A stretch of 64,000 bases of DNA, taken from the NCBI GenBank assembly GCA_963827685.1, contig CAWHBU010000003.1, positions 1 through 64,000 of the forward strand. Direction: 5' to 3'. Origin of the DNA: an uncultured delta proteobacterium (GTDB lineage Bacteria; Desulfobacterota; BSN033; UBA1163). This document shows, piece by piece, positions 6,638 to 61,490 of this stretch. Every line of letters starts with the position of its first letter. The first letter of the stretch is position 1. Made by a program: the position numbers and the translations under genes. A model generated the notes under the pieces. The model saw nothing but the letters and a program-made list of their open reading frames with translations, ran no database searches and was not told the DNA's origin.

Positions 6638-6660
6638 GCGGGCAGGACTCGGTCACAGCT

Positions 6661-18820: not shown

Positions 18821-18890
18821 TTACAACGACCCGCATAAGCAGCTGGAAAAGCGCCAGCTTTTGCCGTCCGCCTTTATGCGGATGTTATGC
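18821..18890 (-). other. attC-like integron recombination site
   Basis: Minus strand GCATAAC-atccgcataaaggcggacggcaaaagc-tggc-gcttttccagctgcttatgcgggtc-GTTGTAA: a 70-bp imperfect palindrome with AAC/GTT cores, 40 bp after the DUF3795 stop. Confidence 0.6.
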
Positions 18891-18929
18891 TGTTATAGAT
18901 GAAATAGCTCTTGCCTTGCCAATAAAAAA

Positions 18930-19421: not shown

Positions 19422-19480
19422 AATTCTAATCCTTCTGGGTTGATCATTTTCCTATTATATTACAAATGCATAATAACCCC

Positions 19481-20341: not shown

Positions 20342-20548
20342 GCTTTCTCACCTCCTTTGTTGGTAACTCCTGCATTGTTCATTAGTAGACTTCTCTGCAA
20401 TTCAGACTAAAGACTTCAGACCCGAGACTTTTCTGTACATGAAATTACCCCTTGAGGTGTTTTCAAACCTTCTTGGACCTTCCGGCCCTCCCACTCTTAG
20501 TCTGAGGTCTGGCGTCTATAGTCTCACTGTCTGAATCACAGTAGACTT

Positions 20549-23500: not shown

Positions 23501-23671
23501 CAGGTAAACCTTAAAACCCGCCGTGGCAAGATCAAGAGAGGCTTGAACACCGCTGATCCCTCCACCGACAACCATCACATCACCAAAATTACTGCCTGCG
23601 AAACTTTTGCGAATACTGTCTGCGAGACTTTTACGAATCTGGTCTTCAATTTTTTCTAGTTCTTTTTCCAC
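20549..23671 (-). CDS. bamE: BamE: HdrA-like flavin/FeS selenoprotein (about 1040 aa)
   Basis: ORFs 23423-23671 and 20549-22966 are in one open frame joined through TGA 23423-23425 (KTFPTNDCSI-U-ILAPK); two GGG.SG/AG FAD motifs. Confidence 0.9.
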
Positions 23672-23675
23672 TTCT

Positions 23676-24533: not shown

Positions 24534-24550
24534 GTTTGTTTCTTTGTCCT

Positions 24551-25708: not shown

Positions 25709-25839
25709 TTTTTTTAATCCTCTTCTTTCGAATATCTGATTACACAGATTAAAAGGCATTGAAAGTAAGGAAAACTCTGTGAAATCTTATTTTGAAATCT
25801 GCGTAATCAGAGAGCGAAAATAAGTTTTTCAGAGCTCTC

Positions 25840-26379
25840 TTATTCCTTCTTTGCCATTCGGGCAACGGTATCCATTACCTTCTGCAATCCATATTTGTCT
25901 ACCATTGATTCCAACCCTATCTCCACGTCCTCCATCTTCACTTCTTCTTCGACTTCCTCTTCCCTTTCTTCGTAAGTCAGGGCATCATTTAAGCACCACT
26001 GAACACACAAGGGCTTTTCTTGTGGCGGATCGTCTTCACACATATCGCATTTGAGAGGGAGACTGGAATCGGGTTCTTTGAAAACGTCCCTGGATGGGCA
26101 GGAAGCCCTGCAGAAGTCGCACTCGTCGTATTCCTTTCCGTCAATCACATATTTGTCTCTGCCAGCACATTCGGCTTTCGCGTAATCACCCGCGTAAACG
26201 GGAAGATATACGTCTCTTATTGGTTCACGAATCAGCCGAATACGAGACCTCGCCGGATTATTGCTGCTATATTTTGGTTTGGCGTGAAATGCTGAGCAGG
26301 CTACCTCACATGCCCGGCAACCATTGCATTTATCAAGATCGATCTTGATTGACTTGATTTTTTTCTTAATCTTGGCCAT
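25840..26379 (-). CDS. bamC: BamC: FeS subunit of class II benzoyl-CoA reductase
   Basis: DKCNGCRACEVACSAFHA.PKYSS.NPARSRI, CDFCRASCPSRD, PLCVQWC; overlaps bamB. Confidence 0.9.
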   Translation of the reverse strand: MAKIKKKIKSIKIDLDKCNGCRACEVACSAFHAKPKYSSNNPARSRIRLIREPIRDVYLPVYAGDYAKAECAGRDKYVIDGKEYDECDFCRASCPSRDVFKEPDSSLPLKCDMCEDDPPQEKPLCVQWCLNDALTYEEREEEVEEEVKMEDVEIGLESMVDKYGLQKVMDTVARMAKKE

Positions 26380-42965: not shown

Positions 42966-45368
42966 TCAGTTTGAAGTTTCACTATCGATGGCCTGAGAGT
43001 AGCGCTGGTAGGTATCATGCCCACTCTGCTTAGCATTATACATTGCCTTGTCAGCACGGCTCACCAGGGTATCGACATCCACGCCGTCATCGGGGTAGAT
43101 CGCAATCCCGATACTGGTGCTGATAGAAACGTCATGGCCATCGAGGAAAAAGGGCTGTCGGAGGGCATATAGAACAGCTTGAGCAATGGTGACTGCGTCC
43201 TCCCCCTGATCTATATCAGGCAATAACAGCAAAAATTCATCCCCCCCCATACGAGCGACCGTATCGGTTTTGCGCACAAGGTCTGTTAATCGGTTGCCGA
43301 CGGCATTCAACAGCCCGTCTCCTGCATCATGGCCCAGCGTATCATTAACTTCTTTGAACCGATCCAAGTCAAGGAATATCACAGCCAGCTTCTTGTGCAC
43401 TCGCTGGGCTTGAGCCATCGCTACGCTGAAACGGTCTTTAAACAACATCCGGTTGGGCAGGCCGGTCAAAAGGTCGTGGGTGGCCTTGTAAGCAAGTTCC
43501 TCCTCCGTCCGCTTACGCTCGGTAACGTCGGACAACATCACAATGACCCTCCCATCATCTAAAAATGTCAGCTTGAACTCTATTTCCTTTACCTCCCCAT
43601 CCTTGCAAACAACACTCCAAACCCTATCAACCCCTTTGCGAGGAGTAGCATCCTCCTTCCATATGGCGATTATCTTATGCCGGTATTCCGGGTCAGGAAA
43701 AGCATTACGGAGCCATTCTCTCCCGGTAGGAACATCCTTTATGGTATAACCGGTGATGGCGGTAAATTCAGGATTGATATAGAGAAACGTGTCATCCGCA
43801 TCGATCAAGAGCGCACCATAGGGTTCTTTTTGCAAGATGGAGAAAAAGGTCTCCCGCTCCTGCTGTAATACTCTCTCAAACTGCTTGCGCTCGGTGATGT
43901 CCCGTGCAATCCCTCTAAACCCTATCGGGTTACCTGATGCATCTTTTCGTAACGATACAGATGTCTCAATGTATCTCTTGGTCCCATCTTTTCTTATAAT
44001 CTCATAATCATATCCTCTGTGAGGTTTCCCTGTCCTGTAGACTTGATTAAAACCTTGAAACAGTTTCTTAGCGTTCTCTCGGTCTGTATACTGCCGGTTA
44101 CTCATACCCATCAATTCCTCTTTGGGGTACCCAAATATTCGGCACATCGAGTCGTTGAAAAAGGTGAAGTTACCGGCAAGATCAACTTCGCAATAACCCT
44201 CTTCGATGCTTTCAAGAATGGTTCGATATTTCTCCTCACTTTGGCGTAGCGCCTCCTCGGCTTGCTTGCGCTCGGTGATGTCGTGAATGATGGAGTACAA
44301 TAGTTGTTTGCCACGCATGAAAAGCGGGCCACTGTTGACCTCGACGTCCCGGATCTGACCATTCGCCAGCCGATGCTGATAGTGAAAATGGTTTTGCTGC
44401 TCGGTCAGAGCACGTTGCATCTCGGTCTTGACCTCCTCGGCCGTCAGGGTGTTGATATCCGTCATCTTAAGCTTGAGGATCTTTTCATAGGGGTAGCCAT
44501 AGAAAACGCAGGCCCCTAAGTTGGCATCCACAATCGTCGCTGTTTCCGGATCGATCATCAGCATGGCCGCCTGATTCTTCTTAAACAGGCTGTGATAGCG
44601 TGCCTCGCTTTCGTGCAATTCTTTCTCAGCCCGCCGGAGCGCAGTGATGTCCTGCATCATGCCGATCATACGAATCGCTTTTCCCGGCCCACCGGTCATG
44701 AAATTTCCGCGGTCGTGGACCCAGCGATAGGCGCCGTCCTTATGAGGGAAGCGGTATTGCGCGTCAAAGGGTGTCAGATATTTTTCTGCAATCTTTAACA
44801 TCCGAAGGACCTTTTCCCGATCCTCCGGATGGATCATCTGCTCCCATTGGGCAATTCCTCCCCGCATCTCATCGGGGGAATATCCCAGTACCTGTTCGAG
44901 GCAGTCGCCCCACATCATGTCGCCCGTGCTGACATCGCACTCGTACGCGAGCTGTCCAGAGGCTGCAAACAGCAGCTCATAGCGGGTCTTCCAGGCGGCC
45001 ATCTCCTCTTCGGCTCTTTCGCGTCTTGTTCTGTGGACTTGATTAAGAGATTGAAACACTTTCTTTCCGTTCTCTTCATCCGTATATTGCCGGTCATTCA
45101 TGCCCATCAATGCCTCTCTTGGGTACCCATGGATTCGGCACATGGATCGTTGAAAAAGGGGAAGTTGCCCGCAAGGTCTACTTCGTAATAACCCTCTCCG
45201 ATGCTTTCAAGAACGGTTCGACATTTCTCCTCACTCTCCCACAACACCTGCTTAACCTGGTTGTCATAGGTTTCAAATTCTTCTAACTCACCAATCCGTT
45301 GACGCAGTGCTGTCAATTCACGGGTGAGCTGATCTTTTGTTTTTTCTCTATCTCTCATTCTATTCACA
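42966..45368 (-). pseudogene. Multi-PAS diguanylate cyclase, frameshifted near the N-terminus
   Basis: The N-terminal ORF (45107-45388) joins the main ORF by a 1-nt deletion at FFND-[S]-MC (about 45145); the first PAS domain is internally deleted; GGDEF is intact. Confidence 0.8.
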
Positions 45369-45387
45369 TAAAGGTATATTTTTATCA

Positions 45388-45402
45388 TGCAATTTTGGTG
45401 CC
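45388..45402 (-). promoter_or_regulatory. Sigma54-type promoter (duplicate)
   Basis: Same GGCACCAAAATTGCA motif; same palindrome at 45491-45505. Confidence 0.6.
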
Positions 45403-45911
45403 CTCCTAAATTTATATTGTTTTAATGAACTAACTATTTAAATTAAAAAGGATTTTGGGGTGGATCAAAAACCACATAGCGGGCAACAAATGACACTTTT
45501 TGTCAATACGGATTGTGCAGGTATTCTTCATGATTCAAGGTCAGTTGGGACTCAGTGAGGTCTTTTCCTATTAATTCAACGCCAGTCCTTTCCCTTTTAC
45601 CTTTTGACCTTGAATTTTTAGGCTTAGTTATTAAATTTAAATAAGACAGGAGGTGTTAATAATGAAAAAAGGTGATAAGAAAGCCAAAGCGAAAAAAACA
45701 AACACACCTGCTTTGTATGATTGCTGTTGGTATGAGCCTTCTTACAGTGATCTTTGCTGTGGTGGGGTTTGCTGTTGCTGACAGGCAGTGAGAATAAAAT
45801 GGTTTCGGTATTTGGAGATAATGCTTTCACTTTCAATATTCTTTCGAGACCATGATTAGAGATCACGGACTTTGGCCTGACCAGGAATCTACATTGTTTA
45901 ACGGGTTCTGA

Positions 45912-46241
45912 CTACAGCCTTTCCATCTCAAAACTATATCGAGATGGATACTCTAAGATCCAGACGAAAGGCACGAGAAGAAAGATACCTCCTATCAAAG
46001 CCGGAATCGAAAGTTTTTCCCATTCGATATAGCCGTTGAAGTCTTTGTAACCCTCTTTTTTTAGAGTCACCGTCTTCACTGTCCCAGCCACTGCTTTATC
46101 TGTATAAAAATGAGGTGTTTCTCCCACGACCTTTCCGTCCACTTGTAACTTGGCCCCTGGCGGATTGGATTTTATTAAGGTCGTGCTTGCACACCCAATG
46201 AGAAAAAAGAACGCCATGGTTAATACAGTTGCCTTTCTCAT
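45912..46241 (-). CDS. PEGA-domain lipoprotein
   Basis: LIGC lipobox; I.SNP.GA...VDG...G.TP and LKKEGY. Confidence 0.8.
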   Translation of the reverse strand: MRKATVLTMAFFFLIGCASTTLIKSNPPGAKLQVDGKVVGETPHFYTDKAVAGTVKTVTLKKEGYKDFNGYIEWEKLSIPALIGGIFLLVPFVWILEYPSRYSFEMERL

Positions 46242-46580
46242 TGTTCCTCCCCTTAAATAATATCTATTTTCATCCTTATCCCCCGGTTAAACCGATTTTC
46301 CGTCCGGATAGCTTGAAAGAGGATTTCCATTTTTTAGTGAAGCTCCCCTCCCACAGGGCGGGGCATTCTGCAGCATTTTCGTAAAAGATTACTTGATTTG
46401 AATAAGCGGGTCAAGATGAATTTGAAGAGTGAAGAGCTAAAGTTTACGAAAAATATAATCATTTTAGGGAGGTCTGCGAAGGAACTAAATACCAAACAGG
46501 ATATTAATAAAAAGGGGGGTACTTCTACCCCCCCTAAAACCTTTACGAACCCACTGACCTCTCTTTGATCAGAGAAAAGA

Positions 46581-47129
46581 TCACTTGCCTTTGAACTTGA
46601 CAATATATTTAGCTAAGGCCTCGCCATTTCTATCCATGGCGTATTCTACCGTATCATTGGCACCCGTAGAGGATGTCCTCAGATCGGTCTCATAGATGAC
46701 GTTGCCGCTTTCCTTGTCGATGAACTTGTAGTGGGCGGCGAAGTAAGCCGTACCGGTATGTTCTCCAAAGGGAACAAAGGACCGTCCTATACGCCTCCCC
46801 ACAGTAGGAGGGTTATACTCTTTGACCTCTCCCTTTATAATGAGCACTTTTCCCCCAGGCGGGGCCGCTTTACCCGCCTTCCCTCCTTCTTTAACGATTG
46901 TGTCAAAGAGGCTATATTTTTCATTATACCTCTTGATCTGGAAAACCGCCTTCTCAGCCATCTGCAAACCTGCCGACTCAGGTGCTGGCGAACCAGAAGG
47001 GACTTCAAGATCCTTAACGATCACTGCATTATAATCCTTGAGGATAGCCTCTGCCGCCATAATCGGGCTATTGGCTCCTAAAACCACTCCCAACACCAAA
47101 AAGATCGCAAAAAAATTCTTTACCTTCAT
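46581..47129 (-). CDS. Secreted protein (DUF4410-like)
   Basis: Signal peptide after GGAGG SD; LIIKGEV.EYNP....R motif. Confidence 0.6.
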   Translation of the reverse strand: MKVKNFFAIFLVLGVVLGANSPIMAAEAILKDYNAVIVKDLEVPSGSPAPESAGLQMAEKAVFQIKRYNEKYSLFDTIVKEGGKAGKAAPPGGKVLIIKGEVKEYNPPTVGRRIGRSFVPFGEHTGTAYFAAHYKFIDKESGNVIYETDLRTSSTGANDTVEYAMDRNGEALAKYIVKFKGK

Positions 47130-47511
47130 AAATTTTCCTCCTTTGAGTGAATGATTACTAATTTTGTCCTTCTTTTTTAGTTCCGTCAATAGAATTCTTA
47201 ATTTTATTTTATCATATTTTCGGTGATTGATTTTCAATCCACTTGCCTTCTTCAAGAAAAATGTTTTGAATAGAAACCTTATTTTTTTCTCAGAGTTTAA
47301 GTAACTTTAACTTAACACATAAAATTGAAACATTAAAGGTTCATGGGATGGAAAAAGATCTGATAGCGGTATGACGCTGCCATCCACCCCGCCTCTATCA
47401 TCAACCGGACCCGTTCCTGGAAAATTGGAAAGTAGCAGGCCGGTTACAGGTCAGACAATGCTTTGACTCCTTTCGCACTTATCCATTTATGGCAGACGAC
47501 CTTAGAAAGTA

Positions 47512-47625
47512 GTCATTGCGAGGAGCGAAGCTCTGCACCGCATGGTGTAAAGGGGGAGCGATCCCGCCAAAGGCGGGACAATCCCATAAGATTGCTTCCT
47601 CCCGCAGGGCGGGATTCGCAATGAC
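47512..47625. repeat. GTCATTGCGA...TCGCAATGAC palindromic element
   Basis: 10-bp terminal inverted repeats with internal hairpins. Confidence 0.6.
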
Positions 47626-48392
47626 AATCTCAAAATGGAAATATACTTAAGTCGTTCACTATAGTTGCCCTAATTGCTCGTTCAGTTCATCCATCGTCCG
47701 CCGGATTTCGTCGGTCTGTCCATGGGCCTTGGACAGGAGGGACTCGATCGTAGCCAGCTCATCCTGAACATACTTCAAAGCTTGCTTCTTCATCTCCTCA
47801 ATAGCCTTATTGATCCGGTCTTCCCACTGGGCAGCGAGACGAGAAAGGTTTACCACCACGATGTTTGGAACCTGGTTTAAATAATGCCTCTCAAAGAGAC
47901 GTCGAAAAATAAACATGGGGATCAGGAACCAGAATAAATTGAGATGAAAATCAAAAGTCCGGCTTATTCTGATGTCCGGCTGATTGGGTTCGGTTACTTC
48001 GATCTTCCACTCTGTTTCTGCAAGTCGCAAGCCGAGCACTCTCTCTATGTTTTGGTTCAGAAGGGTCCTAAAAGCTTCCAGGGATCTGGAGAGACTGGCA
48101 TGGGCTTTTTTAAGAGTGCCCCAAAAATGCTTATGTTCAGTTTTTGACATATGACCGATCTCTTCGGCCAAGGTTTCCTTGAGCCAATTCTCATATTGGT
48201 CAGTAAGCTTCGAGAGATTCCCTTTCCACGAAGGCATCTCTTTGAGTAACATCTCCACCAACTTCTTCTTAAGATGAGGTTGATGAAATTTTCCCAGGTA
48301 ATTCTGGATGATCTCCCGGGTCTGTTGGGAATTTTCTCGAGTGATCAGGGTGATTTCCTGACGTATCAGCTCGTAATTCACTTTCTCATCTA

Positions 48393-49510
48393 GTATCTAA
48401 TTATATAAATAAGCGTACTTATTTTTAGGGTGAACTGATTTGACATAACGCTTGGTCCATTCAAACGGGGCTGCCTTTTCGTTATGGACGGAAATAAACT
48501 CATCGATCGCCTGGCGCAACTGTCGGACGCTTGTAAAGGAGGCGCCCCTCAAGGCATAGCGGCTCAGAAGACTGAACCAGATTTCGATCTGGTTCAGCCA
48601 GGAAGCATGTGTGGGCGTAAAATGAAAATGAACCTTCGGATGGCGTTTAATCCAATGATCCCTCTTCGGTCGATGAGTCTTCAAATTGTCCATAATCACA
48701 TGGATTTCCTCGTCCGGATGTTCGGCAACGATCTCGTTCATAAAATCCAGAAACTCCCGGCGACAACGGCGGCCGTAATGGCCCGCCTTCACTTGTCCCG
48801 TGGCCACATTCAAGGCTGCAAAGAGGGTACTCGTTCCATGCCGTCTATACTCATGGTTGGCTCCCGTCAGCGCCTTGCCATTGGGCAGTTTAAGCCACCC
48901 CTGAGCCCGTTCCAACGCCTGAATGGCTGGCTTCTCATCCATGCATACCACCATGGCGTTCTCAGGAGGATCCAGGTAAAGCCCAACAATATCAGCGGAC
49001 TTCCGTGCAAATTCAGGGTCCGTCGAAATACACCAACTGCGCCGTCTCTGAAGGCTAATCCCATACTTGCGCAACACCGCCCACACTTCATAATCCGGGA
49101 TGCTCGTCCTCTCCCCCAGAAGCCTTCCGTTCCACTGGGCATATCCCTTCGGAGGAGCTTCATCGATCTTGCGCAGAATTGTGTGTTCGGTCTCTGCGGT
49201 GTACTTACGTGGCTGCCCGGGGCGCGGTTCATCAAGCAAACCTGCCAACCCTTCTCTGACGAAACGGCTACGCCATTTGCAAACGCGTGCAACACGAGTC
49301 CTCAGCCTTTTGGCAATCTCCGTGTTACTCTGCCCTTCAGCACCCCAGAGAATAATTTGCGCCCTCTCCGCCATACGCTTGGGAGTGGTATGGGTTCGAA
49401 CCAATCGATCCAACTCAGCCCGTTGCTCGGGCTCCAACGTGATTTCTTTTGCTTTCCTGCTCATAATACAGGAAAGTTAGCATATTACGCTTATTATGTC
49501 AAGTAGATAC
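48393..49510 (-). mobile_element. IS630-family insertion sequence
   Basis: TIRs gtatcta.tt...aataagcgta; TA duplication at 48391-48392 and 49511-49512 within a CTAG target. Confidence 0.92.
48397..49464 (-). CDS. IS630 transposase
   Basis: HTH, then CMDEKP.IQALER, YRRHGT, MDN..TH, TPTHASWLNQIE.WF. Confidence 0.95.
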   Translation of the reverse strand: MSRKAKEITLEPEQRAELDRLVRTHTTPKRMAERAQIILWGAEGQSNTEIAKRLRTRVARVCKWRSRFVREGLAGLLDEPRPGQPRKYTAETEHTILRKIDEAPPKGYAQWNGRLLGERTSIPDYEVWAVLRKYGISLQRRRSWCISTDPEFARKSADIVGLYLDPPENAMVVCMDEKPAIQALERAQGWLKLPNGKALTGANHEYRRHGTSTLFAALNVATGQVKAGHYGRRCRREFLDFMNEIVAEHPDEEIHVIMDNLKTHRPKRDHWIKRHPKVHFHFTPTHASWLNQIEIWFSLLSRYALRGASFTSVRQLRQAIDEFISVHNEKAAPFEWTKRYVKSVHPKNKYAYLYN

Positions 49511-50455
49511 TAGAATCTGCTTCCGGAGCTGCTCCCGGTCGCTGTCCGCCTGCAGGGATGTCTTTAATGCAATCTCTAAGTAACCCAGGCAGCCCTTGCC
49601 GATTGACCGGATCTTGTGTAGCAAGATGTTTTCAAACTCCTCTTCCCGGTGAGTGGAGAGCGGTCGAAAGACCTCGTTCTCCAGCCTTTGTTTCCATTGT
49701 TCGGTGTCCAACCGAGTTGAGTAAAGGAAAATGGGAAATTCCTCATGAAGCTCTTTTCGGAGTGCGGTTTGGAAAAAATGGAGTACTTCTTTTTGTTGTT
49801 CAGGGGAGAGGAGGTCGGTCTTGGTCAGGAGGAGAACAATCTTGGGGGTATGCTTCCGTAAATCGCGGATGAGTTGCAAGTCGTTTTCCGCCAGAGGGCG
49901 ATCCGAACTGATAGCCAGCAAAGCGGCGCCCACCTCCGGAAGCCAGTTTTCGGAGGTCTCCATGTGATATTTAAAGATACTCCCCAGACCTGGTGTGTCT
50001 ACGAACCGCAATCCGCTGTACTTTTCTAAGGAAGGGAGTTCTACATCGACCACTTCCACATTCTTTTGGTTGGCAGGATTTTTGGCCTCCGAGGTAAATT
50101 CTTCAATCGCTCCAATATCCACTTCGGTGTGCTGGCCGTCAAAATGACGCACAATGGCTCTTTCTCCTTTCCCATATTGCACACGGGTGATCGTGGTAGT
50201 AACGGGGATGACCCCGACTGGCAGAATATGTTCTCCGATTAGGCTGTTTAGGAAAGAACTTTTCCCGGACTTAAATTCCCCGAGGATAGCTACATCTATC
50301 AGTTGATCTTGTTGAAGAAGATTTTCGCAGGCTTCGATCTGGCGGTTCAGGGAGACGATATGAAACTGATCGCAGATCTCCTGAATTCGGGACAGCAGAG
50401 CTTGATAGGTATGTGTGAAAGAATCAAGGGGTGCATCTTTTGTCGCTAAGTTCAT

Positions 50456-50528
50456 AAAAAAACTCCTTCAGGTTCTCCCTGCAGGAGTCATCAGCCTCAA
50501 CGGCGGTTATTGGGTGAACTCCATCACC
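50456..50528 (-). ncRNA. Fluoride (crcB) riboswitch 1 with terminator
   Basis: GGTGATGGAGTTCACC-caataaccgccgttgaggc-TGATGACTCCTGC; pseudoknot GGAGT/ACTCC; terminator and U-tract before the GTPase start. Confidence 0.88.
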
Positions 50529-50609
50529 TTTTTAATCCATATTAACAATCTCTAAGAACTTGTGTCAAGTTTTTACAGTGTTTTCACGGTATATCACTTT
50601 CTTACTGCC

Positions 50610-51422
50610 TTAAATGCATGTTCTTGAATATTCAATCTCCTCTAACAAAAGCAAGCCCGACACCGCATGGAATGTGCTCTCAATAAATGGAAAGCTGATA
50701 GGAGCTCTACCGAACCCCCCACCTTTGGTCTGACAGCTAAGAATATATTTCCGGCAGAGTTCTGTCTGGACAGGTGAAGAACCGAGCTTTGACAGAATCT
50801 CAAGGGCACAATAGGTGTTCTCCATATAGGAAGTAGTATCAGGATAGAATCCAAATCCCCCATCTCCATTCTGACAGAGTTGAACCCATTTAATGATTTC
50901 TCGCCTGTCGAAGTCTATGCCGTGATTCAACAGGATTGAAACCTTCTTTCTCAGGGTTTGCAAATTATCCTTTGGATGAAACTGAAGATAAGATAAAGAT
51001 TGGTGAGAATGTGGAGGTCCGTTAAGAAGTTTCTGAATCTCATCGGAAAAGTACTGAGCGTCGAGCACTTGAAATCTTGCCCAATCCCTCTCGAGAAGTT
51101 CGGTCAACAGAGGAGGGAAATCAATATCCAAAAAGAGATGAAGATAGACAAGCATGTAGATTGCCCTTGGGAAACCGACTTCCTTCCAACCGATATTCTT
51201 CAGGTAATTCCCGGTATTGTTCCGATCTACATCCACATCCAGGAATTGTAATATTCGAACGGCATAGTAGGTGTCTTCAATGTCGGGATAAAGTTCAGGG
51301 GCAAAGCTAAACCCTCCTTCCTTCTTCTCCCGATCTCTCAAATACCGGATGACCCTTGAGAGATCAAGCAGCCGACTCACCCCTCCAATTTCTTTTCTTG
51401 ATCCTTCAAGACCCTCGTTCAT
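50610..51422 (-). CDS. Prenyltransferase/squalene oxidase repeat protein
   Basis: Repeats EGGFSF...D.EDTYYA, CQNGDGGFG.....TYCAL, CQ...GGFG.....TFHAV. Confidence 0.8.
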   Translation of the reverse strand: MNEGLEGSRKEIGGVSRLLDLSRVIRYLRDREKKEGGFSFAPELYPDIEDTYYAVRILQFLDVDVDRNNTGNYLKNIGWKEVGFPRAIYMLVYLHLFLDIDFPPLLTELLERDWARFQVLDAQYFSDEIQKLLNGPPHSHQSLSYLQFHPKDNLQTLRKKVSILLNHGIDFDRREIIKWVQLCQNGDGGFGFYPDTTSYMENTYCALEILSKLGSSPVQTELCRKYILSCQTKGGGFGRAPISFPFIESTFHAVSGLLLLEEIEYSRTCI

Positions 51423-51459
51423 TTTCCGTGATCCTTATCGTTTTCAAAGATCCTCAAAT

Positions 51460-51540
51460 AAAAAAACTTCTACCAGTAACCCAGTAGAAGTTATCAATCC
51501 TGTCTCAATAAAAGGACGGTTAAAGGCGAACCTCATCGCC
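51460..51540 (-). ncRNA. Fluoride (crcB) riboswitch 2 with terminator
   Basis: GGCGATGAGGTTCGCC-tttaaccgtcc...ggat-TGATAACTTCTAC, then terminator acttctactgg/ctggtagaagt and U-tract. Confidence 0.85.
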
Positions 51541-51577
51541 TCTGCCAATTAGTCTTCTGATGATGACCACTAAAGTC

Positions 51578-51838
51578 TTACGCTCTTTCTTCCTCCACTT
51601 CTCCAGTTTCGAATAAACACTCATCGCGTTCATAGTCATCCATCTGTGCAGCTCTTATTGATTCCCAACCCTGACGAAGATCGGGTGGTGAGACTTCTGC
51701 AATTTTCTGAGATAGTTCATCTCCGATGATTAGCTTTGTGAGTGAGATTACTGCCCGAGCTGCATGATCTGCCTGCTCTAAGTCTTTCAAATCAGCCATT
51801 TTCATCACAGCCTCAAGAAACTCTTTCCTCGTTTTCAT
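51578..51838 (-). CDS. DUF2267-like small helical protein
   Basis: EFLEAV...A.L....A..AARAV...L......I....P.DL...W; AGGAGG SD. Confidence 0.7.
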   Translation of the reverse strand: MKTRKEFLEAVMKMADLKDLEQADHAARAVISLTKLIIGDELSQKIAEVSPPDLRQGWESIRAAQMDDYERDECLFETGEVEEERA

Positions 51839-51866
51839 AACATCACCTCCTTTCTCCTCCCAAAAT

Positions 51867-51947
51867 AAAAAAACTTCTACCAGGTAACCAGTAGAAGTCA
51901 TCAGTCCCCGATAAGAGGGGGGACATTTAATGGCGAACTTCATCGCC
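51867..51947 (-). ncRNA. Fluoride (crcB) riboswitch 3 with terminator
   Basis: GGCGATGAAGTTCGCC-attaaatgtcccc...ggggac-TGATGACTTCTAC, then terminator and U-tract; TTGACT promoter box at 51991-51996. Confidence 0.9.
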
Positions 51948-52190
51948 GAGGCTCTGAGGTTAAAAATATTATTATCCAAAAAAATATTTAAGTCAATATT
52001 TTGATGAAAAACTCGGTCACCTAATGCCTTTTTTCACTTTCATTCCGAGGTCATTTAACTTGTAATCGGTATTCTTATTTTATTGACCTTTGTGATGAAG
52101 GTTAAACCGCAACAAAACTTAGTGATTTCAAAATATTTGACTATATTGCATAACTTTTCCGCTCTATCCTCGAACTACCTAAAATTTCCC

Positions 52191-52219
52191 TTGACAAAAA
52201 AAGTCTATTATTTTAGCAT
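52191..52219 (+). promoter_or_regulatory. Sigma70 promoter of the fhs/acs operon
   Basis: TTGACA-17-TAGCAT, followed by TTGTGA-N6-CCACAT (Rex/CRP-like). Confidence 0.5.
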
Positions 52220-52426
52220 GCCCATCGATATTGTGATTTTGGCCACATAAAGAATTTGACTAAAAATCCAGTTATTGTAACCGTTAAGAATCATCTTTCC
52301 ACAATCAAAAGAAGAGAAAGGGGGGATTGTTTAATTCCAAACCAAAATTCTTTGTTATTTGATAGATCGGAGTGTTTTAGGGAAAAAATTCAAAATAATT
52401 TTAGAAAGAAAGGGGGAGTAAGAAAC

Positions 52427-54214
52427 ATGGGTTTCAACATTTCAAAAAAGTATAATGAGGCGGACCCAAGAAAGCTTCCAGATTGGCAGGTTGCGGATAT
52501 AGCTGAAGAAACAATGCCCACTGTCGCCGAGTGGCAGGACAAATTGGGTCTCAAGAAGGACGAAATCATCCCGATGGGGAGGTTATGCAAGCTCGATTTC
52601 ATGAAGATTATTGATCGACTCAAAAGTAGGCCAGATGGAAAGTATATAGAAGTCACAGCCATTACTCCAACTCCGTTAGGGGAAGGAAAGACGACAACCT
52701 CTATGGGCTTAATGGAGGGATTAGGCAAAAGAGGAAAGAATGTCGGTGGTTGTATCCGCCAGCCTTCAGGCGGACCGACGATGAATATCAAGGGTACGGC
52801 TGCAGGAGGAGGAAAAGCCCTTCTCATCCCGATGACTGAATTTTCTCTCGGCCTAACCGGTGATATCAATGACATCACCAATGCCCACAACCTGGCAATG
52901 GTCGCTCTGAATGCTAGGATGCAACACGAACGAAACTATGACGATGCTGAACTCGCCAAGAGGAAACTCAAACGGCTCGATATTGACCCCGCCAACATCG
53001 AGATGGGCTGGGTCATGGATTATTGCGCCCAGGGTTTGCGGAACATAATCATGGGTCTTGGGGGCAAGATGGATGGTTTTCTCATGCAATCCAAATTTGG
53101 CATTACAGTGAGTTCGGAGCTAATGGCTATCCTTTCTATTGTGCGAGATCTGAAGGATTTACGGGAGAGGCTTGGAAAGATTGTCGTTGCCTATGATAAG
53201 AAAGGGAAGCCTGTCACCACTACAGACCTCGAAGTGGCAGGGGCCATGTGTGCATGGATGCGGAATACCATCAATCCTACTTTGATGATGACCACAGAAT
53301 ATCAGCCCTGTCTGGTTCATGCCGGTCCTTTTGCCAACATCGCTGTGGGCCAGTCTTCCATTATTGGCGACAGAATTGGTCTAAAGATGTTTGACTACCA
53401 TGTGACCGAGAGCGGTTTTGCTGCGGATATTGGCTTTGAGAAGTTCTGGAATGTGAAATGTCGGTTGAGCGGTTTAGTTCCCAATGTTTCAATACTGACG
53501 GCTACGATCAGGGCTCTAAAGATGCATGGCGGTGGGCCTAAGGTCGTGGCAGGACTGCCCATTCCTGAAGAATACACGAAGGAGAACTTGGCCCTTTTGG
53601 AGAAAGGGATCGTCAATATGACTCACCTGATCGGGGTGATCAAGAAATCAGGAATCAGTCCGGTCGTCTGTATCAATGCCTTCCACACCGATACGAAAGA
53701 CGAAATTGCAATGGTCCGAAAATATGCCGAGCAAGCAGGAGCGCGAGTTGCCCTTTCTGAGCACTGGCTCAAAGGAGGCGATGGAGCCCTTGAGCTGGCC
53801 GATGTGGTCATGGAGGCTTGCAAAGATAAACCCAATCTCAAATTTCTCTACCCGCTGGAGATGCCACTCAGACAACGGGTTGAGACAGTTGCCAAAGAAG
53901 TCTACGGAGCGGCTGGGGTCTCCTGGACACCCGATGCTGAAGCCAAAGCCAAACGGTTTGAAGCCGACCCAGCATTGAAGGATTTCAACACTATGATGGT
54001 AAAGACCCATTTGAGCCTGACTCATGATCCAGCTATCAAAGGAGTACCCAAGGGTTGGGTACTCCCGGTTCGTGATGTTTTAATCTTTGCCGGTGCAAAG
54101 TTCCTCTGCCCGATGACAGGCATGATCAGCTTGATGCCAGGAACCAGCTCTGATCCCGCGTTTAGAAGGGTAGATGTTGATGTGAATACCGGCAAAGTAA
54201 CGGGGCTTTTCTAA
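52427..54214 (+). CDS. fhs: Formate-tetrahydrofolate ligase
   Basis: [21 protein letters not shown]...[29 protein letters not shown]. Confidence 0.96.
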
Positions 54215-54345
54215 GAATAAGACTTCGATCCTCATACTCCCCCCTCTCCCCCCTTTAAATAAATGGGGGAGAGGGGGGAGATTTAAAATTCCCAGTCCCG
54301 CCCCTATCGAAAATGAGGCGGGACTGAGTTATAATAAATTTATTC

Positions 54346-56361
54346 ATGCCGAAGCATAATGTAACTTTCCTACCCAGCGAAAGAAGGATTTCAGTAGATG
54401 AGGACGAGAACCTCCTTCAAGCCGCTATGGAGGCAGGAATTCATATCAATGCCTCTTGCGGTGGAAGTGCAACCTGTGGAAAGTGTAAAGTCAAGATCCT
54501 AAAGGGAGTGGTTGATTCTCCAAAACATCCAAAACTCACCCAGTGGGAATATGATCAAGGATTTCGTCTTGCCTGTTTGACACCGATTCGAGATGATCTC
54601 GATGTCGAGATCCCCATTGAATCACAGGTTGACAGATCTGTCCTTGCCCTCAAAGGTGATCGAGGGGCTCATAAATACCTCCTCTCTCCTCAGGATATCT
54701 ACCAACTCGTTAAAGGGTGGGATGTAGATCCATCGGTATTCAAAAGATATGTCCAACTCGACCCTCCTACTCTTAAGGATAATGTGAGCGACCTCACCCG
54801 TCTGATCAATGCCCTGGATCGGCAGCATGGCATTGAAGGGATTTCTGCTGACTTCCGTGTGATCATGAAGTTGAGTCGCATCCTTCGAGAATCGGATTGG
54901 AAGGTCACGGCTACGCTGGTTCTAACGAAAAAGGGCTATAAATTAGTCAATGTGGAACCTGGAGACAACACCCATCAAAACTATTCGATCGTTTTGGACA
55001 TTGGAACCACGACGATCTTTGGGCAACTTCTCGACCTCAATGGATGCGTGGTCTATGCCTGTCCCGGCGGCCTTTGTGATGGGTCCACCCTCTTCGCCTT
55101 AGCCGAAGCCTCGGATTACAATGCCCAGATCAGTTATGGAGAGGACGTCATCACTCGGATTGTCTATTCCCAAAGGCCTGGAGGACTGAAAAAAATGCAG
55201 GAGGTCGTTGTCTCCACCATCAACAAAATCATCCAGGAATTGCTCCAAATGAGCAAAATTGATCGATCCCTGATCTCCCATCTGGTGATTGCTGGCAATA
55301 CCACGATGACCCAACTCCTTTTAGGACTGGATCCAAAATATATTCGAGAAGCCCCTTATGTTCCAACAGCCAACTTCATCCCTCCGGTGAGGGCCGTCCA
55401 CCTGGGAATCGATATCGGCGATCATGTCCATGTCTATATCTTTCCGATGGTGGCAAGCTACGTAGGCGGAGATATTGTGGCAGGGATCTTGGGATCTGGA
55501 GTTTTTCAAAGAGAACCCCTCACGCTTTATATGGACATCGGCACCAATGGAGAGATTGTACTCGGAAACAAGGATTGGCTGGCCAGCGTCTCCTGCTCTG
55601 CCGGCCCTGCCTTTGAAGGCGCGGGAATTAAATTCGGGATGAGGGCGACCCGCGGAGCCATTGAAGAGGTCAGCATCAACCCTCGAACTTATGAACCAAT
55701 GATCCTCACCATTGGGAGGACAAAGCCCATCGGCATCTGCGGGTCGGGCCTGATTGACTCGGTGGCGGAGTTTTTGGAAACAGGGATGATCGACCAGAAT
55801 GGGAAATTCCGAAGAGACCTCCCTACAGATCGCGTTCGAATGGGACCGGACGGTTACGAATATGTCCTGGCGCGAAAAGAGGAGACTCTCATCCACGAAG
55901 ACATCGTTCTGACCGAGATTGATGTTGAAAATCTAATCCGCACTAAAGCGGCTATCTATGCCGGCTGTAAAGTTTTGTTGAGTAGTGTGGGATTGGATTT
56001 TAAGGATCTTGAGCAGATCATCATCGCCGGTGGATTTGGCCGCCATCTCGATTTAGAAAAGGCGATTTTCATCGGTCTCTTACCAGAGATCGATATCGAA
56101 AAATTTATGTTCGTTGGCAATGGCTCCTTGTTGGGGGCAAGGCTTCTCTCCTTCTCTAAGAACCTCCTGAAAGAGACGGAGCGAATTGCTTTGATGATGA
56201 CGAACCTCGAATTGAGCAATCACCCGACTTTTATGAACGAATTCATTGCAGCGATGTTTCTCCCCCACACGGAGGTCTCTGCCTTCCCAAAAGTGATGGA
56301 AAGGCTCTATGGGATGAAAAGGCAAGTCCGATCGGAGAGGATGGTTGAAGGACGGCTTTGA
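54346..56361 (+). CDS. Reductive activator of corrinoid FeS protein (RACo/AcsV; 2Fe-2S plus ASKHA)
   Basis: CGG..TCGKC...RLAC, DIGTTT, DIGTNGE, SAGPAFEG, GICGSG, IAGGFG. Confidence 0.92.
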   Translation: MPKHNVTFLPSERRISVDEDENLLQAAMEAGIHINASCGGSATCGKCKVKILKGVVDSPKHPKLTQWEYDQGFRLACLTPIRDDLDVEIPIESQVDRSVLALKGDRGAHKYLLSPQDIYQLVKGWDVDPSVFKRYVQLDPPTLKDNVSDLTRLINALDRQHGIEGISADFRVIMKLSRILRESDWKVTATLVLTKKGYKLVNVEPGDNTHQNYSIVLDIGTTTIFGQLLDLNGCVVYACPGGLCDGSTLFALAEASDYNAQISYGEDVITRIVYSQRPGGLKKMQEVVVSTINKIIQELLQMSKIDRSLISHLVIAGNTTMTQLLLGLDPKYIREAPYVPTANFIPPVRAVHLGIDIGDHVHVYIFPMVASYVGGDIVAGILGSGVFQREPLTLYMDIGTNGEIVLGNKDWLASVSCSAGPAFEGAGIKFGMRATRGAIEEVSINPRTYEPMILTIGRTKPIGICGSGLIDSVAEFLETGMIDQNGKFRRDLPTDRVRMGPDGYEYVLARKEETLIHEDIVLTEIDVENLIRTKAAIYAGCKVLLSSVGLDFKDLEQIIIAGGFGRHLDLEKAIFIGLLPEIDIEKFMFVGNGSLLGARLLSFSKNLLKETERIALMMTNLELSNHPTFMNEFIAAMFLPHTEVSAFPKVMERLYGMKRQVRSERMVEGRL

Positions 56362-57104
56362 GCTTTACGATTGCGGTTTCAGGAAAAGGAGGAACGGGCA
56401 AGACCACCCTGGCTGGAATGATCATCCGCTTTCTATTGGACAAAGGGAAAGGTCCGATTCTGGCAGTGGATGCAGATTCTAATTCGAACCTCAACGAGGT
56501 CTTGGGCGTGGAGATCGGATCCACCATTGGCGAAGCCCGTGAGATGATGAAGCAGGATGTCCCGGTTGGGATGACGAAGGACATCTGGTTTGAATATAAG
56601 GTCCAGGAAGCCCTGACCGAAGCTAAGGGATTTGATCTCATCGCGATGGGACGTCCGGAAGGCCCAGGTTGTTATTGTGCGGCAAATACTTTAGCGAGAA
56701 AATGTTTGGATCTTTTGACAGGAAATTATCAATACATCGTCATCGATAATGAAGCCGGGATGGAGCATTTCAGCCGGCTGACGACTCGAGATGTGGATCT
56801 TCTCTTCATCCTCTCGGATTCCAGCCAAAGGGGTATCTTGACCGCTTCTCGGATTCGAGACCTCATCCATGAACTGGATCTCCGGATCGTTCGCGAGGTG
56901 TTGGTCATCAACCGGGTTCAGGGTGAACCAGGGCCTGAAATCTATGAGGAAGTGAAAAAACAAGATCTCGATTTGGGAGGAATCCTCCCTGTCGATGAAG
57001 AGGTTTACCAATACGATTCTGAGGGCAAACCGACCTTTCAACTCCCTTTGGAGTCAAAGGCAGTTCAATCCGCCCGCCGCATCTTCGAGAAATACATTCA
57101 GTAA
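56358..57104 (+). CDS. cooC: CooC/AcsF nickel-insertion ATPase
   Basis: GKGGTGKTT, DAD.N.NL, GCYC, DNEAGMEHFSR. Confidence 0.9.
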   Translation: MSFTIAVSGKGGTGKTTLAGMIIRFLLDKGKGPILAVDADSNSNLNEVLGVEIGSTIGEAREMMKQDVPVGMTKDIWFEYKVQEALTEAKGFDLIAMGRPEGPGCYCAANTLARKCLDLLTGNYQYIVIDNEAGMEHFSRLTTRDVDLLFILSDSSQRGILTASRIRDLIHELDLRIVREVLVINRVQGEPGPEIYEEVKKQDLDLGGILPVDEEVYQYDSEGKPTFQLPLESKAVQSARRIFEKYIQ

Positions 57105-57180
57105 GGGAGGCGCGGAAGATTTTACGATTCACGAGACACGTGACACGGATCACGATATTTTAAGGGGGGAGGTAAAAAAG

Positions 57181-58071
57181 ATGACGGCAAAATTGATTAG
57201 TGGCAATGAAATCGCTCAACAGATTCGGGAGGAACTCAAGCAGGAAACAGCTCGACTCAAAGAAAAACACAATGTCGTCCCGGGCTTGGTGACCGTCCTC
57301 GTAGGCGAAAACCCTGCCTCGGTGAGTTATGTGACGGCAAAGCAGAAGACCTCCAAGGAGTTGGGGTTTTACTCGATTCAGGATAACCAACCTGCCACCA
57401 TTAAAGAAGAAGAATTGCTCAAATTGATCGACAAGTATAATAAGGATCCTAAGATTCACGGTATTTTGGTTCAGCTTCCTCTGCCCAAGCACATCAATGA
57501 AACAAGAATCCTTTATGCCATTGATCCAAAAAAGGATGTAGATGGATTCCATCCGGTCAATGTTGGGAAATTGATGATCGGCGAGGCGGATTATCTTCCC
57601 TGCACTCCAGCAGGAATTCAACAGCTTCTCATTCGAACCGGTGCGAAGATTGATGGTGCAGAGGTCGTGGTCGTGGGAAGATCGAACATCGTTGGAAAAC
57701 CCATTGCCAATATTCTTCTGCAAAAGCAGAAAGGGGCCAATGCAACGGTAACTATCTGCCATACCGGGACAAAGGATATGTCTTTTCATACAAGGAGAGC
57801 GGACATCCTCATTGTGGCTGCTGGAAAGCCCAAAGCGATTACGGCCGATATGGTGAAGGATGGGGCAGTCGTCATTGATGTAGGCGTCAATCGGATTGGA
57901 ATGACCCCCGAAGGAAAGGCCAAACTCTGCGGGGATGTTGACTTTGACGGGGTCAAGGAGAAGGCCAGTGCCATTACCCCAGTCCCTGGGGGAGTAGGAC
58001 CGATGACCATTACAATGCTGATGATGAATACAGTAAAGGCTGCCAAAGTGGCGGCAGGCATAACAAGTTAG
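57181..58071 (+). CDS. folD: Methylene-THF dehydrogenase/cyclohydrolase
   Basis: YV..K, GILVQLPLP, KDVDGFHP.N, PCTP.G, GRSNIVGKP, TPVPGGVGPMT. Confidence 0.97.
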   Translation: MTAKLISGNEIAQQIREELKQETARLKEKHNVVPGLVTVLVGENPASVSYVTAKQKTSKELGFYSIQDNQPATIKEEELLKLIDKYNKDPKIHGILVQLPLPKHINETRILYAIDPKKDVDGFHPVNVGKLMIGEADYLPCTPAGIQQLLIRTGAKIDGAEVVVVGRSNIVGKPIANILLQKQKGANATVTICHTGTKDMSFHTRRADILIVAAGKPKAITADMVKDGAVVIDVGVNRIGMTPEGKAKLCGDVDFDGVKEKASAITPVPGGVGPMTITMLMMNTVKAAKVAAGITS

Positions 58072-58178
58072 GAGTTCGGGGAATTCACGACTCACGCCTG
58101 CGTGCCGGAACAGTGGCACTTCGGCGTGCAGGCACGAATCACCAAATCACGAATAAGCATAGAAAGGAGGAGTTCAGC

Positions 58179-58391
58179 GTGTCTGACCAAATGGAAGAGA
58201 AGGTAACTTTTGATGGAAAGAAGGTAAAGGTATTGGGCCCCACTTTTGAGGAGGGAAAACCCGAGACCCCCATCAACTGGAGACAGAAGATGAGGAACCG
58301 GGATGAGATGCTCGCCTATCTCAAAACCGGGGAACGTTACTGGTTCAGCGAGGAGTGGTTTGGCAGTGAAAAACGAAAGACCAAAGCCTAA
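58179..58391 (+). CDS. Small hypothetical protein in the Wood-Ljungdahl operon (70 aa)
   Basis: AAGGAGG SD and GTG start; tightly packed between folD and acsD. Confidence 0.7.
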   Translation: MSDQMEEKVTFDGKKVKVLGPTFEEGKPETPINWRQKMRNRDEMLAYLKTGERYWFSEEWFGSEKRKTKA

Positions 58392-58418
58392 ACATATAAC
58401 CAGAGGGAGGTGAATATC

Positions 58419-59366
58419 GTGGCATTCGAAATACCAAAGATTACTTATACAGGCAAGATAAAAGAAGTCACACTGGGAAAAGGACCAAAGGCGGTGACCG
58501 TGGGTGGGGAGACATCTTATCCCTTTCATCTGTTTGAGGGAGGGATGCCTCAAACTCCCCGGATTGCCATGGAGGTCTATGATACGCCTCCAGAAGAATG
58601 GCCTGAAGCGGCCTTGGAGCCCTACAAGGATGTGGTCAAGGACCCCGTGGCCTGGGCCAAAAAATGTGTTCAGAGTTATGGCGCAGAGCTGATCGCCCTG
58701 CAACTCGTCAGCACAGACCCAAATGGCCTCAATCGTTCGAGCGATGAGGCTGCTCAGACAGCCAAAAAGGTGGCCAGTGCTGTGGATGTCCCGGTAATTG
58801 TATGGGGAAGTGGAAATGCGGATAAGGACGCGGATGTTCTTCGGAAGGTTGCCGAAACATGTGATGGGATGAATCTCGTCATCGGGCCAGTGGTGGAAGG
58901 AAACTATAAACAGGTGGGCGCAGGAGCGATCGCATACAAACATACGGCAATCGCTTCCACTCCCATCGATATCAACCTGGCCAAACAGCTCAATATCCTC
59001 TTGGGAAATCTGGGCGTTCCGGATGGACAGATCATTGTCGATCCGACCACCGGTGGACTCGGATATGGAATTGAATATACCTATTCGGTCATGGAACGAG
59101 ATCGAATGGCTGCCCTCACCCAACAGGACGAGAGGCTTCAATTCCCTATTCTATGCAATATGGCCAAGGAGATCTGGAAGACCAAGGAAGCCAAGACGAA
59201 AACTGAAGATGCCCCAGCTTTGGGCGATGCCAAGAAGAGAGGAATTCTGATGGAGTCTGTCACCGCGATCGTCCTTCTTTTGGCAGGGGCCGATGTTTTA
59301 GTGATGAGACACCCTGAGGCCATCAAACTGGTCCGGGAGATGATTGCCGATTTTACGGCCAAATAA
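58419..59366 (+). CDS. acsD: Corrinoid FeS protein small subunit
   Basis: VGGET.YPF..FEG, DINLAKQLNI, DPTTGGLGYG.EYTYSVMER. Confidence 0.93.
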   Translation: MAFEIPKITYTGKIKEVTLGKGPKAVTVGGETSYPFHLFEGGMPQTPRIAMEVYDTPPEEWPEAALEPYKDVVKDPVAWAKKCVQSYGAELIALQLVSTDPNGLNRSSDEAAQTAKKVASAVDVPVIVWGSGNADKDADVLRKVAETCDGMNLVIGPVVEGNYKQVGAGAIAYKHTAIASTPIDINLAKQLNILLGNLGVPDGQIIVDPTTGGLGYGIEYTYSVMERDRMAALTQQDERLQFPILCNMAKEIWKTKEAKTKTEDAPALGDAKKRGILMESVTAIVLLLAGADVLVMRHPEAIKLVREMIADFTAK

Positions 59367-59403
59367 ATTTAAAAAAGGGGGAGGAAAACATAAGGAGGAT
59401 AAA

Positions 59404-61371: not shown

Positions 61372-61490
61372 TAAACACACAAAAAACGTGAACCGTGATT
61401 CGTGAGCCGTGACTCGGTTCTTGCTAAATTGAGACCATGATTCACGAATTACCCATTACGATCCACCCTTAATGGAAGGAGGTACATAAC

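Follow-up and report, generated by a model that had tools for sequence, protein, structure and literature searches.

A probable fluoride-inducible gene array with one riboswitch per gene in an uncultured delta proteobacterium

Introduction

The regulon of the fluoride riboswitch (Rfam family RF01734, the crcB motif) is commonly described as consisting of exporters, a small number of fluoride-sensitive enzymes and genes of pH or phosphate homeostasis. Here we analyse a 64,000-nt stretch of DNA (‘the window’: GCA_963827685.1, contig CAWHBU010000003.1, positions 1–64,000) from an uncultured delta proteobacterium, in which three consecutive minus-strand genes, none of them an exporter, each follow a fluoride riboswitch of their own. 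In the direction of transcription they encode a short helical protein resembling DUF2267 (gene 1), a protein with prenyltransferase-type repeats (gene 2) and a dynamin-like GTPase (gene 3). The lineage belongs to the uncultured, Syntrophales-like Thermodesulfobacteriota.

Genes reported behind the crcB motif by Weinberg 2010 (PMC2864571) include, in the passages available to us, mutS, genes of K+ or Cl− transport and formate hydrogen lyase. The corresponding passages of a 2024 review (PMC11139923) list exporters, Na+/H+ antiporters, pyrophosphatase, HAD-type phosphatases, enolase, formate hydrogen lyase and chorismate mutase as the regulon, and those of PMC9971707 tie fluoride switches only to phosphate transporter and polyphosphate phosphatase genes. 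None of the three switches described here precedes any gene class named in those passages of PMC2864571 and PMC11139923. In the full-text literature no relevant paper was found that ties a fluoride riboswitch or crcB to dynamin, DUF2267, a prenyltransferase or a GTPase, most papers being judged by title or abstract and the gene lists of Baker et al. 2012, which could name one of these families, lying outside the coverage.

Results

A cmscan search of the whole window against all Rfam families at gathering cut-offs (34 bits for RF01734) returned exactly three matches, all to RF01734, all on the minus strand and each spanning model positions 1–64 of 64 (Table 1); the whole genome, 5.23 Mb in 14 contigs, holds no others. 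The original prediction, made from the letters of the window, had proposed three crcB-type aptamers with pseudoknot pairing and terminators, and the Infernal search with the Rfam model bears this out for all three, at coordinates that differ by about 10–20 nt because the ranges first proposed included the terminators. As in the terminator-controlled RF01734 riboswitches treated in the available passages of PMC2864571 and PMC11139923, the aptamers are full-length, pair in stem P1 and in the pseudoknot, and overlap in their 3′ part with a terminator, and ON logic is expected. Unlike the described switches, three units stand here within 1.5 kb, one per gene, and one of them (switch 2) lies inside a transcript without a promoter-like site of its own.

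Pairing was followed in 26 aligned switches, the three of the window and 23 from related genomes. Stem P1 and the pseudoknot were paired in 234 of 234 cells, counts that are not independent events since the switches are related, with compensatory swaps at columns 21/32 (CG/UA, 7 sequences) and 26/72 (AU/GC, 9 sequences); when partners were slid by 1–3 columns as a control, 38–60% of cells paired. Terminator pairing held in 96.8% of cells, and four of its pairs had changed on both sides. Column 72 covaries with column 26, to which it pairs in the pseudoknot, and also with column 102, to which it pairs in the terminator; a column with two exclusive partners is the signature of structures that cannot coexist. 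In each aptamer the 3′ pseudoknot strand doubles as the 5′ arm of an intrinsic terminator; in switch 1 the shared sequence is ACUUCUAC. By what is established for this riboswitch class, the terminator would form without fluoride and transcription would end, while binding of fluoride as a Mg-F complex would let the pseudoknot keep the shared strand, and RNA polymerase would continue.

The hairpins of switches 1 and 2 were detected by a terminator scan, that of switch 3 from sequence and fold. In the last, the Shine-Dalgarno motif AAGGAG (50463–50468) falls within the 3′ arm of the terminator and the run of seven T abuts the ATG at 50455, so that the hairpin would also hide the ribosome-binding site of gene 3; for this reason switch 3, which has a promoter-like site of its own, may act on transcription and translation together. 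As a separate observation, one low-depth contig from a public wetland-metagenome run (X4) joins 51501 to 51920, from switch 2 to switch 1, omitting gene 1. With a depth of 3.3, 28 letters on the shorter side and 12 other letters between the two sides, the joint is too weak to be taken as a deletion of gene 1, and could reflect recombination between two similar switches or an assembly artefact.

Promoter-like sites were found immediately before switches 1 and 3 (Table 1), and a promoter scan of the region found none before switch 2, which begins 29 nt past the stop codon of gene 1. From this spacing and the missing site we conclude that transcription of gene 2 probably depends on passage through switch 1 and then switch 2, a requirement that the original prediction had raised conditionally and that now appears probable. 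The conserved promoter would drive switch 1 and gene 1, and gene 2 would be made only if both switches are read through, giving a steeper or later response. A site with at least 10 of 12 matches lies at the same place before 40 of 40 switches preceding gene-1 orthologues in the metagenome loci introduced below, compared with 0.7% of 2000 random 55-nt control windows that hold one, and a site with at least 9 of 12 matches precedes 6 of 8 switches before gene-3 orthologues. Tandem or serial riboswitches are known, the glycine tandem aptamers being an example. The likeness is that RNA polymerase has to pass two switches with one ligand in common before it reaches gene 2, an arrangement in which the response can sharpen; the difference is that a whole gene stands between the two switches, that the first has its own output, and that no cooperative contact between aptamers is implied.

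The array recurs across the lineage. Switches of RF01734 occur in 17 of 36 other genomes of the same family, often as 2–4 copies within a few kb, and in 0 of 13 genomes of two sister families. Eight related regions carry 23 switches at the Rfam cut-off, and the array usually adjoins a divergent formate-tetrahydrofolate ligase gene, a position kept in seven of the eight. Relatives have further members: enolase, transporters of the major facilitator superfamily (MFS; in G013 directly after gene 2), DUF6062 proteins, a Na_H_Exchanger protein with its own switch (G026), a 338–376-aa protein with an AAA_16 ATPase behind its own switch, and proteins of 190 and 180 aa, each again with its own switch. 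The switches of other family genomes that can be placed precede genes 1, 2 or 3, the 190-aa protein, an antiporter or a MutS_V ATPase, none of which is an exporter.

Eighty metagenome loci, picked by gene 2 (63–89% identical) and scanned with a model of the lineage's own switches, contain 148 plus-strand switches. A same-strand switch lies upstream in 70 of the 80, within 150 nt in 39 and about 732 nt away, with a DUF6062 gene between, in 30; in the ten others the sequence available upstream is shorter than 770 nt, and wherever it reaches 2 kb or more (36 loci) two or three switches are present. The first gene after a switch, counted over all 148, is gene 1 in 42 cases, gene 2 in 40, the DUF6062 gene in 29, the gene for the 190-aa protein in 23, gene 3 in 8 and another gene in 5; no open reading frame (ORF) follows the one remaining switch. 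One switch per gene is therefore the rule in the lineage.

No match to PF02537 (CrcB/Fluc) was found in the window or in its own genome (94.5% complete), a search in which 11 of 14 control genomes were positive; CrcB was likewise found in 0 of the 36 other family genomes and 0 of 8 genomes of a sister family, and is present in five other families of the phylum. Three CLC matches of the genome lie on another contig. They could be rejected as fluoride exporters of the CLC-F type by the length of their frames (600–606 aa), their CBS domains, their matches to NCBIfam ClcB/ClcA models and their weaker similarity to the solved CLC-F 6d0j (39.9 bits, against 133–143 bits to ClcA structures). The prediction that the window has neither Fluc nor CLC, and that none of the three genes is an exporter, is therefore confirmed, and in the remainder of the genome the search for exporters yielded no CrcB and CLCs of the chloride type only. 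Nor does the genome contain, at E 1e-10, a homologue of the MFS protein or antiporter that is switch-linked in relatives.

Gene 3 has a Dynamin_N domain well above the cut-off of 27 bits (the intact orthologue scores 81.9 bits), with the motifs GEFKSGKS (P-loop), DTPG and TKTD. Bacterial dynamin-like proteins include BDLP, DynA, LeoA and IniA. The gene 3 product resembles them in having Dynamin_N with G1, G3 and G4 and, after it, an extended helical region; a conserved hydrophobic stretch of this region (LNLFWFLIPMFIF, in the C-terminal part) could insert into the membrane. It differs in being a single 556-aa chain and in its predicted fluoride regulation. No curated NCBIfam model reaches its cut-off, the best being DynA (40 bits against 1600). 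Intact orthologues measure 539–565 aa and are 76–86% identical.

In the window the GTPase gene is split. Its N-terminal part (an ORF of 318 aa as read, 49499–50455) is 86% identical to residues 1–316 of the intact 556-aa orthologue, its C-terminal part is read as an ORF of 240 aa (47659–48381), and directly after residue 315 begins an insertion sequence of the IS630 type. The element has all the features of that family and nothing unusual: a DDE_3 transposase with N-terminal helix-turn-helix (HTH) domains, a length of about 1.1 kb, imperfect terminal inverted repeats (29 nt, 79% complementary), a duplicated TA target site (49511–49512 and 48391–48392) and several copies. The flanks translate to ...LRKQIL and DEKVNYELIRQE..., which joined give the orthologue consensus LRKQILDEKVNYELIRQE. 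Contigs of two public wetland-metagenome runs (X3 and X4) join 48391 to 49512 with 110 letters on the shorter side of each joint, omitting 1120 nt, that is 1118 + 2; an uninterrupted allele therefore exists in closely related populations. No second copy of the GTPase was found in the genome. On the sequence, gene 3 is inactivated in this genome, and the insertion looks recent because its five full-length copies are each listed at 100% identity and its flanks are otherwise intact. The element itself looks recently active in the genome. The original description of the three genes thus stands for a DUF2267-like protein, a protein with Prenyltrans repeats and one with Dynamin_N, and fails in taking the GTPase as a whole gene.

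Beyond the lineage, a scan with one genome per species gave 59 GTPase loci, 11 of them Syntrophales-like, all with an upstream switch, and 48 from other phyla (records of Ignavibacteria, Planctomycetota, Bacteroidota, Acidobacteria and Alphaproteobacteria; 29–55% identical). A switch lies within the 3-kb flanks of 21 of these 48, and all 20 loci re-checked with Rfam had at least one match at the curated cut-off, 27 in total. When the 48 were walked upstream, 15 reached a same-strand switch, 13 ran off the fetched DNA and 20 first met an opposite-strand ORF, which in 4 of the 20, inspected by eye, was the only ORF met, short, doubtful and lying over or next to a switch. The operons read switch-CrcB-DUF190-enolase-(switch)-GTPase-antiporter-Usp-HAD-like, with variants, and enolase stands beside the GTPase in 25 of the 59 loci.

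Some neighbours recur at such loci. A small protein with HEAT and zinc-ribbon features lies behind switches adjoining the GTPase or the gene 2 type of protein (L073 1559–3198; L240 2242–2625), and in L073 a metallophosphoesterase also follows a fluoride switch. One type of MFS protein, 57–59% identical between the lineage, Bacteroidota-type and other genomes, occurs always in fluoride operons, and may have spread horizontally and play a part in transport under fluoride stress.

The 270-aa product of gene 2 has a predicted model (pLDDT 83) that forms a 12-helix toroid. In a VIA search of about 48,000 solved chains its six best matches were protein prenyltransferase beta subunits, with Z 16.3–18.3 and root-mean-square deviations of 3.7–5.0 over 228–254 aligned residues for the beta chains of farnesyltransferase (FTase) and geranylgeranyltransferases I and III (GGTase-I, GGTase-III). 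These rank above terpene cyclases (Z 13–14) and sugar-active or other toroids (Z 13 or less), and the matches place the protein in the toroid fold. Foldseek gave low TM-scores for the same model (0.25–0.58), probably through register slips between repeats, and the VIA result is the clearer. The family profile also matches the beta subunit of Rab geranylgeranyltransferase (RabGGTase; E 2e-12) through its GGF repeats.

The zinc site of prenyltransferase beta subunits is made of one Asp, one Cys and one His. In an alignment of 11 gene 2 family sequences no His is invariant and only one Cys is, and an enzyme-type zinc site is for that reason not evident. The HMMER alignment to RabGGTase beta ends just before the stretch that we take to hold the zinc ligands; past a GRPEKLP-like motif, what is presumably the place of the Asp and Cys ligands reads P-F-I-E-S-T in gene 2. 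The protein thus has the (alpha/alpha)6 toroid and GGF-motif repeats of prenyltransferase beta subunits, and differs from them in its length of only 270 residues and perhaps in its zinc site; no alpha-subunit gene was noticed beside it.

Lineage orthologues of gene 2 are 65–76% identical. A word-based protein search gave only 214 relatives; identity does not fall below 64% among the best 120, and those bearing a name are annotated as hypothetical. Of 400 other genomes of the phylum searched with a profile, 51 have relatives of 250–300 aa. At 8 of 29 toroid loci examined a fluoride switch lies within 1.5 kb; seven reach the Rfam cut-off among 20 scanned, and the eighth (L212), the sole one from the window's family, falls below it. 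The arrangements comprise a switch directly followed by the toroid gene (three genomes of two other families), switch-CrcB-DUF190-toroid, switch-HEAT/zinc-ribbon protein-toroid-CrcB-DUF190-MFS, and, twice, a toroid gene adjoining switch-antiporter. In L054 genes 2 and 3 share one common switch, and in L055 a 28%-identical gene 2 paralogue follows the GTPase gene. Going by these sequences, a new finding is that the small prenyltransferase-like protein stands behind switches, or next to CrcB-DUF190, in four or more further families of the phylum. Outside the phylum, no gene 2 relative was found at E 1e-5 in the three genomes carrying L083, L074 and L059.

The match of gene 1 to PF10025 covers profile positions 2–79 of 122 and stays below the cut-off (29.8 bits), which leaves the protein DUF2267-like; a relative in another family of the phylum passes (34.6 bits). 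Its predicted model (pLDDT 84) is a small helical domain, with the Thermus protein 2ysk_A as best structural match, a weak one (Z 5.1 over 63 residues). Lineage orthologues are 87–91% identical, and 52 of 1.84 billion cluster representatives match at E 0.001. In the phylum sample, relatives occur in 15 of the 400 genomes, and a switch was present at 2 of 20 loci, both in the window's own family; gene 1 is accordingly switch-linked only inside its own family's array. The linkage to switches elsewhere, on which the original prediction partly depended, therefore extends to homologues of the GTPase and of the prenyltransferase-like protein, and for the DUF2267-like protein stops at the family. Some relatives are fused to TctC-type proteins, and the frames of about 360 aa that match gene 1 in other genomes are such fusions. 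The idea that gene 1 corresponds to the N-terminal domain of the relatives' 376-aa switch-linked protein was rejected (profile comparison probability 0.25%).

Downstream of the array, the orthologue of a 182-aa secreted-type protein has its own fluoride switch in two relatives. Here there is none: an unfiltered model search of 44000–54000 for a fourth, decayed switch gave nothing above 7.8 bits except the three switches and antisense terminators. The spacer of about 400 nt between the GTPase stop codon and this gene holds GC-rich palindromic stretches (about 47480–47640) that look like a repeated extragenic element, and no riboswitch. Divergent from the array, Wood-Ljungdahl genes occupy 52256–63694 on the plus strand (formate-tetrahydrofolate ligase, RACo, FolD, CO dehydrogenase and the beta subunit of acetyl-CoA synthase).

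Farther off, the minus-strand genes at 14793–28333 encode an aldehyde-ferredoxin-oxidoreductase-type protein, Fe-S and CCG (HdrD-like) proteins, an HdrA-like flavoprotein, FlpD/MvhD and the alpha and beta subunits of an electron transfer flavoprotein, a set that we take to resemble class II (Bam-type) benzoyl-CoA reductase clusters and that was probably the reason why the organism had been called a benzoate degrader. A link between the array and defluorination of fluoroaromatics, offered earlier as speculation, found no support, the Bam-like set lying more than 19 kb away and not being under switch control. A possible defence island (3767–11656) comprises genes for an AbiV-like HEPN protein, an AbiGi-like protein, a 368-aa protein without Pfam match and an 825-aa Piwi-domain protein of the prokaryotic Argonaute type, with two flanking DDE_Tnp_1_6 transposase genes.

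Table 1. Features of the array and its surroundings (window positions unless a locus, genome or contig is named)
Feature	Position	Strand	Remarks
Promoter-like site P1	51968-51996	minus	TTGACT-17-AATAAT; 10/12 matches; ends 11 nt before switch 1
Riboswitch 1, RF01734 aptamer	51885-51956	minus	48.6 bits, E 2e-10
Terminator of switch 1	51862-51899	minus	12-bp stem (51899-51872), then T7; shares strand with pseudoknot; terminator scan and fold
Gene 1, half-length DUF2267-like, helical	51578-51838	minus	86 aa; PF10025 25.4 bits
Riboswitch 2, RF01734 aptamer	51478-51549	minus	46.1 bits, E 1.4e-9
Terminator of switch 2	51455-51492	minus	12-bp hairpin (51492-51465), then T7; terminator scan and fold
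Gene 2, compact (alpha/alpha)6 toroid	50610-51422	minus	270 aa; PF00432 (Prenyltrans) 61 bits
Promoter-like site P3	50539-50568	minus	TTGACA-18-TAATAT, TG before -10; 10/12 matches; ends 1 nt before switch 3
Riboswitch 3, RF01734 aptamer	50475-50537	minus	59.6 bits, E 5.3e-14
Terminator of switch 3	50456-50488	minus	hairpin 50488-50462, then T7, then ATG 50455; sequence and fold
Gene 3, N-terminal part, predicted dynamin-like GTPase domain	49511-50455	minus	315 codons; PF00350 87.5 bits
IS630-type element	48393-49510	minus	1118 bp; DDE_3 transposase ORF 48397-49464; PF13358 84.8 bits and HTH domains
Gene 3, C-terminal part, helical	47659-48390	minus	243 codons and stop; 76% identical to orthologue residues 310-553
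Downstream gene, secreted-type protein	46581-47129	minus	182 aa; 83% identical to L038 3460-4002; no switch here
Other IS630-type copies, own genome (G000)	C6:502373-503490, C2:597733-598850, C3:522048-523165, C2:435414-436531		100% identity
Shared MFS type, candidate transporter	L040 4284-5453; L106 1711-2901; L080 827-2185; L240 3-686		

Discussion

The locus is probably best explained as a fluoride-inducible array of an uncultured bacterium with one ON riboswitch per gene. Together the three proteins would make up a branch of the fluoride response that operates at the membrane and not by export: the GTPase would remodel or repair membranes, the toroid protein, apparently without a conserved zinc site, would serve as a binding or accessory module rather than as a prenyltransferase, and the small helical protein would be an adaptor. 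Since the only GTPase copy is interrupted, this membrane branch would be crippled in the genome analysed. The idea of an uncharacterised fluoride-stress module without exporter, put forward in the original prediction, survives largely, with the corrections that its GTPase is broken and its DUF2267-like protein tied to fluoride only locally.

A more far-reaching proposal is tentative, and we think it unlikely in full: that in a family without Fluc or CLC-F, tolerance depends on a non-export mechanism in which the GTPase and the putatively zinc-less toroid work together at the membrane, under their own switches and in graded order. They might serve to seal the membrane or change its shape, or to handle isoprenoid lipids, when it is damaged by hydrogen fluoride (HF) influx and metal-fluoride complexes, and the toroid would then be a new recurrent component of defence.

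Several points weigh against an inducible membrane branch without an exporter. With the genome at 94.5% completeness and 8% contamination, an exporter could be encoded in the part not recovered, and the loci of the lineage are related, so that counts over them are not independent. Promoter-like matches across the region number 8, where shuffles lead one to expect 6.8; it is their placement and conservation, not their frequency, that speak for the putative promoters. We infer the promoters, the read-through and the induction from the DNA, and the protein roles from fold and neighbourhood, the suggested membrane repair or remodelling coming from the dynamin fold class. No switch lies within 3 kb at 27 of the 48 GTPase loci from other phyla, and at 13 of the 48 the fetched DNA ended before an answer; none lies within 1.5 kb at 21 of the 29 toroid loci, and a search of 301 genomes from a different phylum gave no gene 2 relative at E 1e-10. 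For gene 1 the corresponding figure is 18 of 20 loci without a switch within 1.5 kb, with varied neighbours, which suggests that the DUF2267-like protein is not a dedicated fluoride protein. Finally, because its only copy is broken, the GTPase is dispensable under the conditions of this population.

That last point could also mean that the organism no longer depends on the array and that its units are heading for loss. The interruption of the GTPase by an element with five identical copies agrees with such decay, as do the absence from this array of the enolase, Na+/H+ antiporter, MFS, DUF6062 and fourth switch of relatives, and the absence from the genome of any homologue of the switch-linked MFS protein or antiporter. 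All three aptamers, however, score like those of relatives and their terminators are intact, genes 1 and 2 are full-length and 65–91% identical to orthologues, and the insertion looks recent, near-identical empty-site DNA being present in other samples. We therefore regard decay as unlikely.

Quite improbable, in our judgement, is that the switch-controlled proteins are themselves sensitive to fluoride and are over-made in compensation. Metal fluorides trap GTPases, and the GTPase could be caught in this way by Mg-F or Al-F mimics of the gamma-phosphate. Enolase, a classic fluoride target, is a frequent neighbour of the GTPase and belongs to the array of relatives, and over-production of enolase and pyrophosphatase is described as a fluoride response in the available passages of PMC11139923. 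A housekeeping target would nevertheless be expected to be expressed without fluoride too, yet the GTPase has no second, constitutive copy and is dispensable here, being broken; nor does compensation account for the toroid or the small helical protein.

Equally doubtful is an unrecognised exporter that does the main work with the three proteins as side players, for although the MFS protein after gene 2 in G013, the switch-linked Na_H_Exchanger in G026 and the MFS type that recurs in fluoride operons of Bacteroidota-type and other genomes would suit it, this genome has neither transporter, and Na+/H+ antiporters in fluoride regulons are read as serving pH homeostasis in the available passages of PMC11139923.

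If the array is indeed fluoride-inducible, as we think probable, its layout of one switch per gene, with a switch inside a transcript, would offer a natural case for the study of serial identical riboswitches and their dose-response. The locus and its relatives add two protein families to the fluoride regulon with comparative support: the dynamin-like GTPase, in several phyla, and the small prenyltransferase-fold protein, in at least five families of one phylum. Their setting, a lineage in which no known exporter was found, poses the testable question of a membrane-centred, non-export branch of fluoride defence, which may bear on the engineering of microbes tolerant to the fluoride released from organofluorine compounds.

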